A DNA stretch of 64,000 nt, from positions 54,560,001 through 54,624,000 of the forward strand of contig OZ024745.1 in NCBI GenBank assembly GCA_964016885.1, read 5' to 3'. This document shows positions 2,984 through 58,230 of this stretch, piece by piece. Position 1 is the stretch's first letter, and each line of letters opens with the position of its first letter. Under the pieces are notes generated by a model. That model was given only the letters and a program-made list of their open reading frames with translations, was not told the DNA's origin and ran no database searches. Made by a program: the position numbers and the translations under genes. This DNA comes from Eledone cirrhosa (Eukaryota).

Positions 2984-3178
2984 CAGACCTATCAATTCCC
3001 CCAGCCCGATGGAGAGATTTACCACCCACTTTAGGATGGGTGAGATGTGTCTTTTCTTGTGAAAATGGGTGTAGCTTTCATTATGTAAAATCTTCCCATT
3101 TTGCTTCATTTCTCCCCGTTTTGGGGTATTTTTTCTCATGGTATTCCCCGCTCAGGTTTTTAGAGGTTTGCTGGTCTT
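2984..3178 (-). mobile_element. About 195-bp MITE (hAT-like termini), copy 1
   Basis: Reverse-complement match to 4114-4307; degenerate CAGAC...GTCT termini. Confidence 0.65.
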
Positions 3179-3585
3179 AATGTTAACTAATATATATAAC
3201 TAATGATTGTTTTCAACATAGAAATCGTTAGTTGTGACATTGAAACATTTTCCTGTGCGTCATTTATACTAGTTTTCACGCTGCATTTATTGTAACCATT
3301 CGGATATCACCAACACATATCTCTACATGTCAGAAATAATTTCTGTAACATTAATGTCCTTACCACCACTTGTTTTGAACCAATAAATTATGGCCTTTTT
3401 AACATACTACCTTACGCTCTCCTTTTCATTTTAACTTATTTTTATAGCATGTGGAATGTTTGGACGTATGTACGAACAAGAAACCGTTTGGTAAAACCTG
3501 AATAAGTCACACGATATACATGTTGACCGTAGTAGAAACATATCAATATTTAAAATGTTATATATATTGACAGAAGTAAAATAAT

Positions 3586-3772
3586 TGTTTCTACTTTTGG
3601 CACGAGGCCAGCAATTATCCAGTGCCTTACTGGTACTTTATTTTATCGACCCCGTAAGGATGAAAGGCAAAGTAAACCTCGGTGGGATTTGAACTCAGAA
3701 TGGCAAGGACCGTAACTCTATGTGTCAAAGCATGGCCTCCGACCCTCTACCGATACTGCCAATCCAGCGCCA
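3586..3772 (-). mobile_element. tRNA-derived SINE (Meta/MESC-domain-like core), full length with 20-bp TSD
   Basis: Minus strand has A-box-like tggcagtatcggtag, B-box gagttcaaatccc and core gcctttcatccttacggggtcgataaaataaagtaccag. TSD attgaca(g/a)aagtaaaataat at 3566-3585 and 3773-3792. Confidence 0.9.
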
Positions 3773-3959
3773 ATTGACAAAAGTAAAATAATATAAGTTG
3801 CTTTATAAACAAATTTCTGACAGCCGTAATGCTTGTCTTTACTCATACTATTTCGGAGTACTTTCGAAATGATGGTGTGATGTTCACAATATTATTACAG
3901 CTGATTAAGATTTAGTACTTAGCTCTCTCACCACTTATTGTTATTAAAGATTATGAAAG

Positions 3960-4350
3960 GGTGGTAGGTTGACAGTATTGTTAGAGCGCCCGAAAGTGCT
4001 TTGCGGAATTATCCCGGCTCCTAATGTTACCTGTTCAAATCTCTCCGAGTTCCCATTTACCTTTCATTTCATTGTGGTCAATAAATTAAAGTAGCAATCA
4101 AGTACTAGAGTTGCAGACTTGCCAACCTCTAAAAACCCAAACGGGGGGTACCATGAAAAAAGTGCCCTAAAACGGGAAGAAATGTGGCAAAATGGGGGGA
4201 TTTTACATAATGAAAGCTATACCCATTTTCACAAGAGAAGACATCTCTGACCCACCCCAAAGTGGCTGGCATATCGCGCCGTCGGAGGGGGAGAGTTTAC
4301 AAGTCTAATGTTGATATAATCCACTTTCTCCTCTCCTCCGAATTGCTAAT
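3960..4350 (+). mobile_element. Old diverged SINE interrupted by a MITE
   Basis: Degenerate B-box (tgttcaaatct) and core (cctttcat..gtcaataaattaaagta); tail resumes after 4307. Confidence 0.55.
4114..4307 (+). mobile_element. About 195-bp MITE, copy 2
   Basis: Termini cagacttgccaac...gtttacaagtcta; homologous to 2984-3178 in inverted orientation. Confidence 0.7.
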
Positions 4351-11416: not shown

Positions 11417-12346
11417 TTGTGTGACCCAGCGTTCGTCGCCATTCTCTCTCTCTGTCTCTCTATCTGATTATCTTTACCTCTCTCTGTATAACGACCTATC
11501 TCACTCGCTCTCTCTCTACATCTCCCTTTCTATCTTTAGATGTATATGTTTATGTGTTTGTGTGATATATATATATAGAGAGAGTTGTAACATGTATGTA
11601 GTTTCATAGATTTTTGAGGGTAGTGAGAATGAAAATATAAACAGAGCATATAAATAAATTTACAGTAGAATAACATAACAAATATGTTTTATATATATAC
11701 ATAAATAACATTACAAATGCCTCGGTAACACTACAAAGGATGATAAAATGAAAGATATATTCCTTCAATGCTACAATATTAAAGAAAATGTAAAGGAAGG
11801 GGTGAACAACGGAGCCAACACCAGAGCAAAAGATAGCAACGTCGCGAGTACTGTGCAACCTCTCTAATGATTTTTGAAGCAAGCCAGCACACTCGCAGCG
11901 TTGCCTCGGGTGATGGCGAGGCTGATGCGCTGAAATATTGTTTTAAAAGACTTTTTAATGGAAATGAAGCAAAATGGAAGCTTAAAGTTGAAACTTCGAA
12001 CTCATGAATTTTGTAGGTTAACATTTTGCTGGCCCGAAAACTGTTCGCGTATTTTTGTACCTTTGCACGTTTATAGATAAACAAATGACGCCATAAAAGG
12101 GAAATAACTCGTCTCTCATCAATATTTATACATTTGAACTGAAAAATCAATATATTACAAATTCGATTTTTGCACTTGGCGTGTGTCGATTTGAAAATTT
12201 TTTTGACCGATGTCTCCGCCGGACCTTCATCTATAAGTGTAGCAATTTCACCGAAATTTGAACGTACGGTTTAGGAGGAGATGTGTGCCGACTGTTTTAG
12301 TAGATAGACAGACAGACAGACACACTCAGTTTTATATATATAGAGA
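10162..12346 (-). mobile_element. Non-autonomous Helitron (or two Helitron terminal fragments) with nested SINE and microsatellites
   Basis: Minus strand starts A|TC(tctatatatataaaactgagtgtgtctgtctgtc) at 12346 and ends with hairpin acccgagcaacgccgggt followed by ctgCTAG|T at 10162; A-T insertion context. Confidence 0.65.
10739..10846 (+). mobile_element. 5'-truncated SINE copy
   Basis: Core and tail (ggccttgtgccaaaagtagaaacaa) match the family. Confidence 0.85.
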
Positions 12347-12434
12347 TAAACGTATAATATACGTTTATATATGTTCTCATATACACCCCCATTATGCTTA
12401 AATGGTGTCTTAGCCATACAGCCAATTATATATA

Positions 12435-12627
12435 TATTTAATTAGAAAGTGAAAAACACAAAATATAACTACTCCATTACCAAAGGTTTCTGGATCACAG
12501 ACAATAATCGGTCGTCAGACACATCTGTCTGACAACCGATCCAGTCGTATATTGTTATTGTCTGTGATCCAGAAACCTTTAGTAATGGAGTAGTTATATT
12601 TTGTGTTGTTCACTTTCTAATTAAATA
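12435..12627. repeat. Fold-back palindrome (family B) with half-hammerhead and nested hairpin
   Basis: About 70-bp arms; minus arm reads tccaGAAAcctttgGTAatggag; inner hairpin atcggtcgtcagaca/tgtctgacaaccgat. Confidence 0.8.
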
Positions 12628-12685
12628 GCTCTGTTCTGTACATAGAGCACTCTTTTTTCCTTTGATTTTCCTTCGGAATTACCTA

Positions 12686-12743
<58 letters not shown>

Positions 12744-12837
12744 GTGGAACACTGGAAGGTAATAACCGTAGTGGTAGAGCACTCAGTCCAAGGGACGAGT
12801 TAGGTAGAAGTGGTTACACAACAGTTAGTTCACCATA

Positions 12838-12877
12838 CCGAGAACAATTGTTTCACCTTCGCGGATCTTCAGCTCGG
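12838..12877 (-). ncRNA. Minimal type I hammerhead ribozyme (sense to the element)
   Basis: Reverse complement reads ccgag CTGAAGA tccgcgaaggt GAAA caattg TT ctcgg. Confidence 0.75.
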
Positions 12878-13061
12878 GATGTGTATGGTTATAGGAACAG
12901 GAAGGACAACCGTACGAACGCGCATGCGCAGAAACTCGGTCACTTCATACAGGCAATACTAGACTGCGTGCGGGAGGTGTAAGGGAGATAACTGCGAAAG
13001 TCCGGAAAGTTTTTAGGTTGAAAATAAAATTAAAAGAAATTAAAAATAAAATTACAAAGAA

Positions 13062-13345
13062 TCAGTCCGGAGCCTTGTAGTTATGCAATAGATGTTTGGT
13101 GACGTGTGGACAACGTGTGAAAAATTCACTCCTCGTGTTTAGGCAATCACTATTGCGTAATCTCTTTAGGATAGTTATTCGTTCGTCGATACATAAGCCA
13201 CACGTCGGATTTCCCCCTGCGTATGGCTTGTACTTAGTGATGGCTTTCCATTGAATGGAGTAGCCTATACTTGAGTCCTTGAGGGACCATACGTGGCTCG
13301 CGAGTTTCGTGGATGAACGTCTGTCCGGGTGTCTGAAAAATGGTG
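13062..13345 (-). pseudogene. C-terminus of Penelope-type GIY-YIG endonuclease
   Basis: STKLASHVWSLKD..IQWK..CGLCIDERITIL..LNTRSEFFTRCPH matches the PLE endonuclease tail (CxLC..E..LN.R.E...C.H). Confidence 0.8.
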
Positions 13346-13569
13346 GTTCAAACATCTATTGCACAACTACAAGGCTCCGAACTGATTCTTTGTAATTTTA
13401 TTTTAAATTTCTTTTAATTTTATTTTCAACCTAAAAACTTTCCGGAATTTCGCAGTTATCTCCCTTACACCTCCCGCACGCAGTCTAATATTGCCTGTGT
13501 GAAGTGACCGAGTTTCTGCGCATGCGCGTTCGTACGGTTGTCCTTCCTGTTCCTATAACCATACACATC

Positions 13570-13609
13570 CCGAGCTGAAGATCCGCGAAGGTGAAACAAT
13601 TGTTCTCGG
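13570..13609 (+). ncRNA. Minimal type I hammerhead ribozyme (inverted pseudo-LTR copy)
   Basis: Stem I ccgag/ctcgg, core CUGAAGA and GAAA, palindromic stem III aacaattgtt, GUU triplet. Confidence 0.75.
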
Positions 13610-14025
13610 TATGGTGAACTAACTGTTGTGTAACCCCTTCTATATATCTATATCTATATATATATATCTATATATATCCAGGGAGTGTAACTATAGGTTC
13701 ACCCAGGTGACCACTCGATGTTTAAGTTCACGTCAGTATCGAGGTGTAGAGCTAGACAGAGTGTAATATAATAATACGGTTAAGCCTTCATTACGTTTAT
13801 TGGTGACGCGCCTTCTCTATTTTCTACAGTCTTCACAACACTAGCTTCATACCACATTTCCATATTTGTGTGTGTATATATTTATATATATATATATATA
13901 TATTATATATATTTTCATACACTAACCTCATACCACTCCTATCACCTTACTAATTCCCTATACCGCATGTCCCCTTTAACTATGTCTACATCCCACCCAT
14001 ATATATATATATATATTTATTATAT

Positions 14026-33927: not shown

Positions 33928-34571
33928 TTAATTTGGTAATTTGTTTTCAAACTCGCGAAATCTAGGCACCTTTAGAGGCATCCATTACAGGCTTCATCGT
34001 AACTGTATACTTGGGTTGTGATAGTTTTTGAGAGCGAACAGTGTCACTAATTGCTCCATCTCCCCTAGTATCTTACCCAAACTCCGTCTGATTTATTTAT
34101 TGTATTCCCTACTTTTGAACGAAAATAGGGTATGATTTGAGGGAGAATTTCACGTTATATCTAGCAGAGCATGCGACAGCTTACTTCGTATAACCGAAAT
34201 TAAGGTTATTGATAATTATGTCATTCTTAATTGTATTGTTCTTCCCAATCAACTTTTTTCCATATCAACATTTATGAACTTATGAAGAATACAATTTGAA
34301 AATATAAGAGATGCTTGTAAGATTAACAATTCGTAGCTCTACCAAAGGTAAATCCTAGAAGAACAGTTGGCGCTTAGAATATACGTATTATGTTTAACAC
34401 AGAAAACATAACAGATAAAAGTTAAGTAATTATTAATACATTAATTCCTTTCATACAAACGGTAACCTGTGGAAATGTTTGTATGTTCTCCGTGTTTAAC
34501 TTCGCAGCTTTAATTGCTGACTTTACAGGATTTAAGTTTGACTTTCGGGTATTCTATTCTATAATAATATT

Positions 34572-34706
34572 TACACATTGCTTTGCTAAAGTATGGTGAA
34601 ATTCATATGTATGTATATATATATATATATACATACATATGAATTTCACCATACTTAAGCAAAGCAATGTGTACACATTGCTAAAGTATGGTGAAATTCA
34701 TATGTA
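34572..34706. repeat. Forward-reverse-forward local duplication centred on (TA)n
   Basis: Palindrome 34572-34673 followed by a third, direct copy. Confidence 0.9.
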
Positions 34707-35265
34707 TATATATATATATATATATATACATATATACATGTGTGTGTGTGTGTACATGTGTGTGTGTGTGTTTGTGTGTGTGTGCGTGTGCGTGTTTGTG
34801 TAGAAACCTACTTCCATACCGCCACATACATACACATATAAATATATACGCCGGGCTCCATATTATCATGATCTATAATACTACTACAGCTACTACACTC
34901 AAACATACACACACACACACGCGCGTGAGCACAGCAGACATTCTCGGAAAAGAGAGAAAAAGAAAAAACACCAAGATAATGAAAAATAATAATTCATGAG
35001 ATATTGGATAGAATTTTCAAGAAAATTCTCATATATTTTATCTGTTTTTGAGTCTACATTTTTCACTTTACGCAGACATACACTCGAACTATATAATACA
35101 TAAAATACGTTCGTATATCTTTTCTCTCTCTGTCTCTATCTCTCTCTCTCTCTCTCTCTCTCACCCTCTCTTTCTCTTACCCCCCCCTCTCATACACAAA
35201 CACACACTCGCACAGGGGCACATACATATGGGTACACATAACTAGAAACAAACATTCATAGTCGA

Positions 35266-35974
<709 letters not shown>

Positions 35975-43163: not shown

Positions 43164-43404
43164 ACCAAGTATGAACCCGACGGCAGAGCTCAAGCCGTTT
43201 CGACGGCTAATTCTAGTCCAGAATTAGCCGTCGAAGCGGCTTTAGCTCTGCCGACGGCTAATTCTGGACTAGAATTAGCCGTCGAAACGGCTTGAGCTTT
43301 GCCGTCGGGGTCATACTTGTTCCTATTACCCACTCTACTACTCTAAGTATTGAGTACTTTGGTCGTTATGGTCCATCTGGTTCCCTACCACATTTCCTTC
43401 GTTA
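43160..43404 (+). mobile_element. Family A copy 2, double fold-back
   Basis: The ctaattctggacta/tagtccagaattag segment is inverted twice; GAAA at 43284-43287, GTC at 43304-43306; (TA)n flanks. Confidence 0.8.
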
Positions 43405-43415
43405 TATATATATAT

Positions 43416-43558
<143 letters not shown>

Positions 43559-43601
43559 TATACTTATACATATATTAAGTAAGGGCTCTGATTTTCCTAA
43601 G

Positions 43602-44345
43602 TACGAGAGGGCAAGGCAGCACCTCGTTGATGTATATAGGCGTGTTGGTTATGACCTTGGCTGCTCTTACATACTTGTTTGAACATGATCGATTGAACGA
43701 GTCATGAATTATTGCTGTTTATAACCTCTGTTACGTTTACAATGCAGGAAAATATCGAATAACGGTACGCGATCAAATTTTGTGTGAAACTCGACAAATC
43801 TAATTATTTAACACAAGCTTATGGTGATGTCACTCTATCCAGAAGTAAGATTTTTAAGAGGTACAAAATTTTTAAAGTGGTCCGAGAAAATGTTGAAGAC
43901 GAATCTCGTTCTGGAAGCCCAATCTCAACAAAGGAAGAAAAAGTGGAAGCAGCATTGTCCAAAAAATCGCCGATTCACTGTTCGAATAACTGCTGAAGAA
44001 ATGGGCTTGGATAAAAATGTATTTCACACAATTTAATCAGCCCATTTGCACCTGCAAAAAATTTGTGCGAAGCTAGAGCCCTAACACGTAACTTGGCAAA
44101 GAGCTACTCGGCGAGAAGGATTCAAAATTGAACCAAATTTCTGGGATAAAGTAATAACAGGAGATGAATCATGGGTGTTCGAAGACGATCCAGAGACAAA
44201 ACGGCAAAGTGAGGAGAGGCATACGAAAAGTTTTTCTTGTCCGAAGAAAGCACGTATGAGCAGATCCAGGGTGAAAACAGATGCTTATCATTTTTTTCAA
44301 GTGCCCTCGTATTGTTAACAAATATATTTTACCTCCTGGCAGTTA
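43602..44345 (+). mobile_element. Mariner transposon 5' part (decayed transposase)
   Basis: MQENIE*RYAIKFCVKLDKS..QAYGD..LSRS..VEDESRSGSP; VITGDESWVFEDDPETKRQS..PKKARMSRSRVK (first catalytic D). Confidence 0.9.
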
Positions 44346-44651
44346 ATCGCACTTCTAAAACCAACACCAATAAACAATGGTAAAACAGCCAGACACACTT
44401 AGTCACAAACATGAACAAAGTATAGCCCATTGCAGCAATATATACGGGGATACAAGCAACAAATTAAAATCAATACACAAACATTCACATGTCACCCTTT
44501 TTCTGATCTATCTACGCGTATTACCCTGACTAAGGATTAAAGCCCTATACGTTGAACTTCTTTGCTTTCAATCTAAGCAGGAACATAATAACACAAATGG
44601 TGTTTCTATCCCTGTATTAGTCATTTGTTCTTCTATATATATAAAGATATA

Positions 44652-44955
44652 TACGAGGGTCGGTTGAAAAGTTCATAGGCTGACGAAGATACTGTCATGG
44701 AATGTGAGCAAATGAGGTTTAAATTTCAATATAGTTTCCCCTACGTTGCACACACTCCCTCCATCGGTGTTGCTGTGCTTGGATATATTGGTGAAGAAGG
44801 TCTCATACTGTAGGTAAAATAAAACAAATATCACCAACAGCAGATGTGAAGTCATCATCACAGTGACACGAGATGTTCCCAGCCAAGTGTCTTTTCTTGT
44901 TAGGGAACAAACAGTAAGATGGGCCTAAATCAGGAGAAGAGGGATGGTGATCAAT
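44652..44955 (-). mobile_element. Mariner 3' end fragment with TIR
   Basis: TIR tacgagggtcggttgaaaagtt at a TA; minus strand HHPSSPDLGPSYCLFPNKKRHLAG resembles HPPYSPDLAPSD.LFP. Confidence 0.85.
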
Positions 44956-45053
44956 ATACCCCCCCCCCCCCACACACTTTCAAGCGTGAAACTAAAAACA
45001 ATATCATTTGTCTGCCTCTCTGTTTTTTTTTGTTCTCTGTTCATTTATTAAAC

Positions 45054-45085
<32 letters not shown>

Positions 45086-45103
45086 AGTATGTATATATAT
45101 AAG

Positions 45104-45137
<34 letters not shown>

Positions 45138-45346
45138 TTTATGATAAACTATATATATGTGTTTGTGTCTATATTGTATCTGTATTATTTTTGACCGTCG
45201 GTCAGTCAATGGCAACATTGAGGACCGAGTAAGTTAGATTACCGATATAAAAGACACAGAAGCGAGAAGCGAAAACCAACCAAACAGTGAGTGTGTTCTG
45301 TTATTAATTCTGGCAATATTACACAAACATGACCCTCCCCAAGTAT

Positions 45347-45584
<238 letters not shown>

Positions 45585-57330: not shown

Positions 57331-58059
57331 AAACTCATACACAGCTTTTCTCTCAAATATGATATACCGAGTCTGATACAGTTTGATCATGCTTATAAAG
57401 GATTTGTCATATTTTTCTCAGTTCTTTATGCTTATTTTGAAAGAGTAGTGTTCCTAATTCATGTGTGTATTAACGTTGCAAATCTTACATAGTTCCTTCT
57501 GCAGATTAAGAATGGTCATACTAGTGGTGTATTTTTAATACAGTACATAAAGAAAAGAAAAGAGATACGACTACATTAGTTGATAGTACGACAATTCTGT
57601 ACAGAATTTCGTACAAAAGAAGGCTAATAACCGTAGAAGCTATACTGATATAGGAATATAAGTCTAAGATTAATGAAGCATATGTGAAACTAATTAACAT
57701 AACTTCCATGTTCGATTAAGAAATTTGAAATTAGGTTCCAACTATCACCTTCCACACCCATATTACTTTACAAACACTCAAAACCATGTAAGAATGACGT
57801 CAAAAGTATAACAATTTTGATTCCGGAGATGAGACCATAAATGTTTCGAAACAATACACACATCGATTTAGAAACGCTACTGCTCCAATCCAAGCTTTAA
57901 CAAAATACGACAATTCCTAAATATAATCTGGAGTACTTTTGTGTTTTCAATATAGAATATATATATATATATATATAGTAATAATAATAACTTTGAAGAC
58001 TAAATCTGTTATTTTAATGTTATTTTAATATATATATATATATATATATATGAAACAAA

Positions 58060-58230
58060 TCAGGACCCCGACGGGTGAACTCCGGTCATTTCAACAGCTA
58101 GATCCGATCTAGCTGTCGAAATGGCCGGAGCTCAGCCGTCGGGGTCCTGACTCTTTTCCTACTACCTACTCTACTACCATAGTATCGAGAACTCTAGTGC
58201 GTTATGGTCCACCTGGTTCCTTACCACACT
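58060..58230 (+). mobile_element. Family A copy 4 (diverged subfamily), fold-back
   Basis: Palindrome centred on agctagatc-c-gatctagct; GAAA at 58118, GTC at 58138; same 3' tail. Confidence 0.75.

Follow-up and report, generated by a model that had tools for sequence, protein, structure and literature searches.

The palindrome at positions 12435–12627 of the window (the whole 64,000-nucleotide stretch of Eledone cirrhosa DNA that was analysed) is a 5′-truncated inverted insertion of the pseudo-LTR (pLTR) of a Penelope-like element (PLE) in a (TA)n tract. It is a dead stub of a known retrotransposon class and a new family member of known layout, given that an inverted pLTR copy with a one-sided tail is the arrangement described for PLEs in the Figure 2 legend of Craig et al. 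(2021, PMC8557442) and in Arkhipova et al. (2013, PMC3846280). We consider it likely that such two-armed, 5′-truncated insertions are formed mainly by priming at both ends of the target, with the products joined head to head. For any single copy, including the one in the window, fold-back or later palindrome deletion may be responsible.

Folding predicts a single long hairpin on both strands of 12435–12627 (−122.6 and −131.7 kcal/mol), with z scores of −24 and −27 against shuffled sequences, of which 0/200 were equally stable. The arms are 73 bp long with two mismatches (12454/12608 and 12481/12581), and the long palindrome described in the initial annotation is therefore real, as is its account of GAAAC..GTA ATGGAG in both arms with one substitution in the plus arm, which is G>A at 12581. 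The same annotation took CUGANGA to be absent and the symmetry centre to lie in the would-be stem II. Neither statement holds. An intact CTGACGA is found on the minus strand at 12518–12512, and its plus-strand counterpart at 12529–12535 is mutated to CTGACAA. The symmetry centre is the terminal loop 12522–12525. In the reference this loop falls within the stem I 5′ strand, some 60 nt before the GUA cleavage site. The centre looked shifted because the minus arm carries a deletion of about 15 nt in the stem II 5′ strand, visible in the fold as a 15-nt bulge. The second hairpin noted at the centre is present, and is simply the CUGANGA core folded against its own mirror copy. The insertion extends beyond the palindrome, as a family-specific tail follows on the right, but not on the left, between 12628 and about 12696. 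Its parts are as follows, in a reference numbering where 0 is the first base after the GUA cleavage triplet.

12425–12434, no strand: left (TA)n target tract, from the sequence; (TA)n flanks most family copies.
12435–12508, minus strand: inverted tail-less pLTR arm, reference +43 to −31, by BLAST to a family copy (97% identity); contains the stem II 3′ strand, GAAAC, stem III, GTA, the stem I 3′ strand and the downstream leader.
12507–12521, minus strand: inner segment of the same arm (reference −59 to −44), by BLAST mapping; holds the intact CTGACGA at 12518–12512 and is separated from the outer part by the deletion of about 15 nt in the stem II 5′ strand.
12522–12525, no strand: head-to-head junction and symmetry centre, in the stem I 5′ strand, from the hairpin loop and mapping.
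12524–12627, plus strand: sense pLTR arm, reference −61 to +43, from sequence and mapping; stem I 5′ strand 12524–12528, mutated core CTGACAA 12529–12535, long stem II 12538–12569, GAAAC 12572–12576, stem III with G>A at 12581, GTA 12582–12584, stem I 3′ strand 12585–12590.
12628–12696, plus strand: one-sided PLE tail, reference +44 to about +101/+111, which continues into the 5′ leader and ORF in full-length copies.
12697–12740, no strand: right (TA)n target tract, from the sequence, common to the next inverted insertion.

The window copy is predicted to be inactive as a hammerhead, because the core is broken on one arm and stem II on the other. Its relatives are numerous. A DNA search of the 3.0-Gb genome gave 1061 candidates, and the 40 that were scored are all near full-length matches; a 24-mer from the leader has 1085 exact matches and a 26-mer from the tail 701, while the reversed controls have 0. 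In the 25 loci read the centre shifts from one locus to another, and about 60 nt of further sequence follows one of the arms; this can be either arm, and in one locus (L007) it is both. Most copies of the family are flanked by (TA)n, as judged from inspected flanks.

Complete hammerhead motifs among the homologues, which had been proposed as a check on the initial annotation, do exist. A 39-mer that covers stem I, CTGACGA and stem II is matched exactly 56 times in the genome, and at the 30 loci that were read it leads on into GAAAC..GTA. All three core motifs (CUGANGA, GAAA and NUH, in type I order) are intact in 81/115 full arms. Stems I–III can pair in 85–99% of 104 arms at each position except at the base of stem II. 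There is little two-sided covariation across the arms, so that the pairing mostly reflects shared descent. The centroid fold of one copy (L050) has the three hammerhead stems, but with a z score of only −0.5. The closing pairs of stem II are mismatched, −49/−14 being paired in 10/103 arms and −48/−15 in 1/103; at these frequencies the G10.1–C11.1 pair that closes stem II is not a feature of the family. Rfam gave no match at gathering level in the window and no hammerhead for the isolated family motif. In five loci there was no hammerhead among the 150 of 167 E-value matches listed, which are mostly microsatellite miRNA models. The motif is best described as a hammerhead variant and a putative ribozyme.

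The minimal type I hammerheads of metazoan PLEs (Cervera & de la Peña, 2014, PMC4209133) provide the closest comparison. The motif resembles them in its type I topology, long helix II and short helix III, and in its occurrence in pLTRs, as scattered single copies and as dual motifs on opposite strands 100–700 bp apart. It differs in that C.A or A.A, together with a C.C mismatch, takes the place of the G10.1–C11.1 pair, described there as highly conserved, and in that loop III is not palindromic. The family or its hammerhead variant may already be listed in files S1/S2 of Craig et al. The repeats also recall non-LTR retrozymes, which are hammerhead repeats derived from PLE pLTRs (bioRxiv 10.64898/2026.07.22.740005; PMC7229834). 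As described in the former source, however, retrozymes are tandem units, whereas the stubs here are dispersed, individually truncated, inverted insertions.

The parent element was reconstructed by walking upstream from the repeat, and has the order ORF, 3′ UTR, first tail copy, microsatellite-rich sequence, hammerhead, leader, tail. In two loci (L112 and L122) the pLTR is in partial tandem, and hammerhead and tail run directly into the leader and a broken ORF, which ends in the family's own 3′ UTR. An ORF for reverse transcriptase (RT) with a C-terminal GIY-YIG domain is linked to the repeat in these two loci and in L121; the three parents read are all broken by stops and frameshifts. A homology search with an RT fragment found 146 protein matches, 120 of them listed, and the five that were aligned (655–718 aa) are colinear over the parent ORF, at 26–67% identity per segment. 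P0032, one of three homologues scanned, is above the Pfam cut-off for GIY-YIG, and the parent's own RT fragment has a weak match to Pfam RVT_1 (E 0.06). Section 11 of Craig et al. gives RWK, DKT, CxCX5C, CxxC and CxH as marks of the Hydra clade. RWK occurs in L121, DKT in L122, CxCX5C in L121 and L122, and CxxC/CxH in L112 and L122. No CCHH motif was seen in the parent translations, which were read by eye. The parent is a PLE with Hydra-clade motifs, and would be placed in that clade by the motifs.

The description of Hydra-clade PLEs in PMC8557442 fits the parent in several respects: a single ORF of about 700 aa for RT and C-terminal GIY-YIG, the motifs just listed, (TA)n targets, a hammerhead in the pLTR, heavy 5′ truncation, an adjacent inverted copy and a one-sided tail. 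It differs from that description in having a tail of about 58–68 nt instead of 30–40, a long microsatellite-rich 3′ region with a second, upstream tail copy, and a hammerhead without the G10.1–C11.1 pair. The second tail copy lies right after the parent 3′ UTR and is sometimes duplicated (L071:1237–1297, L117:3534–3593, L122:5939–5985). No hammerhead module was matched downstream of it in L117 and L122, which suggests that reverse transcription can begin on the tail by itself. The same (TA)n tracts also hold several other, nested PLE families (L058, L059, L112 and L126), for example an RT ORF at L059:5050–7470 with a different 3′ end. This ORF, which adjoins a copy of the repeat, was considered as the parent and rejected, because it is part of another PLE that has a 3′ end of its own.

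Inverted insertions make up 99/160 of those sampled. In four loci (L116, L123, L125 and L126) a truncated endonuclease ORF follows immediately downstream of the inverted pLTR arm, and the short palindromes therefore form the lower end of a single size series. Since they are short, high-copy inverted repeats flanked by TA, they might also be taken for a MITE or fold-back DNA transposon, or for whole copies of one non-autonomous master with a fixed palindrome. We regard this as highly improbable. Such elements have fixed symmetric ends and a fixed internal sequence, neither of which is found here: the position of the centre is not constant among copies, the two ends are unequal and either may carry the optional tail, and the family sequence runs without a break into the RT/GIY-YIG ORF.

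The arm ends were analysed in two sets of loci, both from contigs C1–C2 and biased to copies with an exact match. The discovery set comes from the first 100 of the 1085 leader 24-mer matches (90 loci, with five listed places left out, from which 5 duplicates were dropped to leave 85, 50 inverted and 35 single), and the replication set from the first 100 of the 701 tail 26-mer matches (87 loci, from which 12 overlaps with the discovery set were dropped to leave 75, 49 inverted and 26 single). Predictions were fixed before the replication set was read, and the null is a crude uniform distribution over −125..+43. Arm 5′ ends are concentrated at −75..−64, with 40/118 in the discovery set and 23/114 in the replication set (8.1 expected, p=5e−6). 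This main junction peak, at the 5′ edge of stem I, holds 63/232 ends against 16.5 expected. The modal end is −69 (22 ends), followed by −70 and −82 (11 each); ends mapped by BLAST are uncertain by 1–3 nt. The 3′ ends are bimodal, at +43 and at +101..+111. Arm ends at the cleavage site are not enriched (13/232, 13.7 expected). Cleaved RNA was considered as the template and dropped, as ends near −5..+4, which had seemed to cluster in the discovery set, are not enriched in either set (8/118 and 5/114).

The initial annotation had proposed that fold-back at hammerhead stem II may be a general mechanism generating palindromes in this genome, and had suggested examining palindrome centres for enrichment of the GAAAC..GTH motif. 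The centres do cluster in and around the hammerhead, and stem II is a real but secondary junction site. Its 5′ base (−48..−42, an interval chosen after seeing the data) has 32/232 ends against 9.6 expected, whereas the main peak is at the edge of stem I. In the replication set the stem II base holds 20/114 ends, so that our advance prediction of no stem II enrichment partly failed. Stem II as a whole is barely enriched (52/232 ends, 42.6 expected, p=0.07); among the inverted copies, native stem II is the centre in 6/99 and both arms end in stem II in 11/99.

These last two counts speak for fold-back, in which a single cDNA or an antisense template would prime itself to give the inverted arm, preferentially at the hammerhead stems, with later deletions giving the asymmetry; a similar self-priming idea is put forward in PMC3846280. 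So do the overlaps of 1–6 nt at 42/99 junctions of inverted copies, the few junctions that join stem I partners (L128, −69 to +12), and the window copy, which carries a 15-nt internal deletion and fits this route as well. The arms also mostly share subfamily alleles: in a comparison made on position-ordered sets, they are discordant in 10/44 copies at −30 and 9/45 at −20, where about half would be expected if they were independent and the background is 5.8%. As the arms agree far more than independent templates would, most arm pairs come from one RNA or one source locus.

Fold-back from one cDNA, however, needs the tail arm to be the one reaching furthest 5′, and copies with a shorter tail arm therefore count against it. 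On the 5′ side the tail arm stops short of the tail-less arm in 22/50 and 24/49 inverted copies of the two sets (46/99 together, a few outer ends of the partner arms being untraced). In 10/99 the arms barely overlap, the tail arm starting at +30 or beyond and the other reaching 0 or beyond (in L299 the partner end is untraced). The long arm of these asymmetric copies often ends in the −70..−64 peak. Barely overlapping arms cannot be explained by fold-back from one strand. The main junction peak is outside stem II, and some copies switch linked alleles between arms: in L130, L144, L241 and L303 the arms differ at 3–5 linked subfamily sites. We therefore think fold-back unlikely as the main route. 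The general cause of the palindromes is PLE retrotransposition and not a palindrome generator specific to hammerheads. For scans of this genome this serves as a warning that “half-hammerhead palindromes” are truncated PLE ends and not a new ribozyme-driven mechanism.

Under two-ended priming, the GIY-YIG/RT protein would nick both strands of the (TA)n tract, and each 3′-OH would start cDNA synthesis at either of two internal positions in the leader of the RNA, giving the one-sided tail. On transcripts from an internal promoter at about −69, RT would run off after only 110–180 nt or drop off earlier. The cDNA 3′ ends would then join via 1–6 nt of microhomology, filler bases or the self-complementary stems of the hammerhead, and repair would fill in. 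The hammerhead would be a passenger in the stubs. Several of these steps have a counterpart in the Poseidon element PAc of Anolis, as reported by Frangieh et al. (2024, PMC11167929): in vitro the protein cuts both strands and extends them, the tail is bounded by a pair of internal RT start sites, and insertion does not need hammerhead cleavage. The present family is similar in its two start sites bounding the tail and in its AT-rich targets. It differs in that the PAc start sites are 111–118 nt inside the ORF, whereas here the 3′ end classes fall in the 5′ leader, about 120–180 nt before the ORF. The Penelope of Adineta vaga (PMC3846280) shares head-to-head inverted pLTRs, junction palindromes, an optional tail and an initiator-like motif in the pLTR. 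Its authors favour self-priming on an antisense template; the copies described here speak rather for a pair of separately primed cDNAs and for a point of run-off.

What marks −69 is a separate matter. The DPE of a promoter has the consensus RGWYV at the fixed position +28..+32. The −69 base, an A preceded by C or T, forms an initiator-like YA. RGACGT occurs just once in the reference, at +28..+33 counted from this base, and RGWYV is matched at that site by 126/154 arms. Penelope of Drosophila virilis has an internal promoter with the DPE RGACGTGY (Schostak et al.). From the motifs and the DNA ends, the chances that RNA starts at −69 appear about evenly balanced; RT would run off there. The fuller proposal carries somewhat less than an even chance: a DPE-type promoter at the first base of hammerhead stem I, RT starting 110–180 nt downstream, and strong-stop-like run-off cDNAs from both target strands joined head to head. 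Copies break off most often at one base, and run-off at an RNA start there would explain why small palindromes are so common.

The peak could instead be an effect of structure, at the end of an extended stem I, or of microhomology, if TATA anneals to the TA-rich target. The −69 base is the outer pair of stem I, the −70/−69 site is also a self-complementary TATA, and of the top peaks −70 is TATA and −82 is ATAT, the latter (11 ends) having no DPE at its +28. We consider this possible but rather doubtful, in view of the exact DPE spacing from −69. Moreover, the four TATA/ATAT sites nearer the RT start (−37, −36, +10 and +11) have only 2–4 ends each, and the stem I partner (+8..+13) is not the joining point for most arms that end at −69.

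If the fuller proposal holds, a monomeric PLE transcript would by default give rise to short palindromes, a full-length copy could be made only by tandem read-through or a template jump, and the stubs would be a fossil record of the unsolved PLE cycle. Craig et al. describe the formation of tandem and inverted PLE structures as an open question. A run-off (strong-stop) model for PLEs was not found in our literature searches, and may still have been published. With about a thousand or more independent junctions, a peak at a single base, two start sites and a parent that has been traced, the family allows sharp predictions, namely an RNA 5′ end at −69 and two-ended priming.

The window also holds palindromes of another family, family A, which have a one-sided tail (520–730, 43177–43400 and 58049–58230). 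A local BLAST of the element against the window gave no family A match, in agreement with the annotated lack of visible similarity between the two. Family A nevertheless has the same palindrome-plus-tail layout, and in one locus (L260) its tail runs into an ORF with 33–62% identity per segment to the parent of the family described above. With the same layout and a link to an RT ORF, the common cause in both families is PLE insertion, with a family-specific break point. In family A, 32/43 arm ends are within 22 nt upstream of GAAAC (30 of 112 loci), and there was no match by eye to a DPE at +28 from the end clusters. No CUGANGA was found in the 1.5 kb read upstream in four long copies (L256, L259, L260 and L274), and a pyrimidine-rich CAG is located just before the break cluster. 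For these two reasons, an intron may split the family A hammerhead.

A second inverted insertion shares the (TA)n tract on the right of the palindrome. It occupies window positions 12742–13642, with arms of 294 bp that are 97.6% identical and 250 bp apart, and an apparent one-sided tail on the left. It has a complete minimal hammerhead at about 13570–13617 (CTGAAGA at 13575, palindromic AATT loop III) with a mirror at 12872, and probably belongs to another, younger PLE family. To the left, at 12095–12350, is another, separate dispersed repeat, about 250 bp long and containing a (GACA)n tract, for which there are 893 candidates in the genome, the 40 scored being 93–96% identical; we take it to resemble non-autonomous Helitron-like elements. 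Further local inverted repeats, some of them rich in microsatellites, are found at window positions 2985–4306, 34566–34733, 35266–35901 and 43271–45578.
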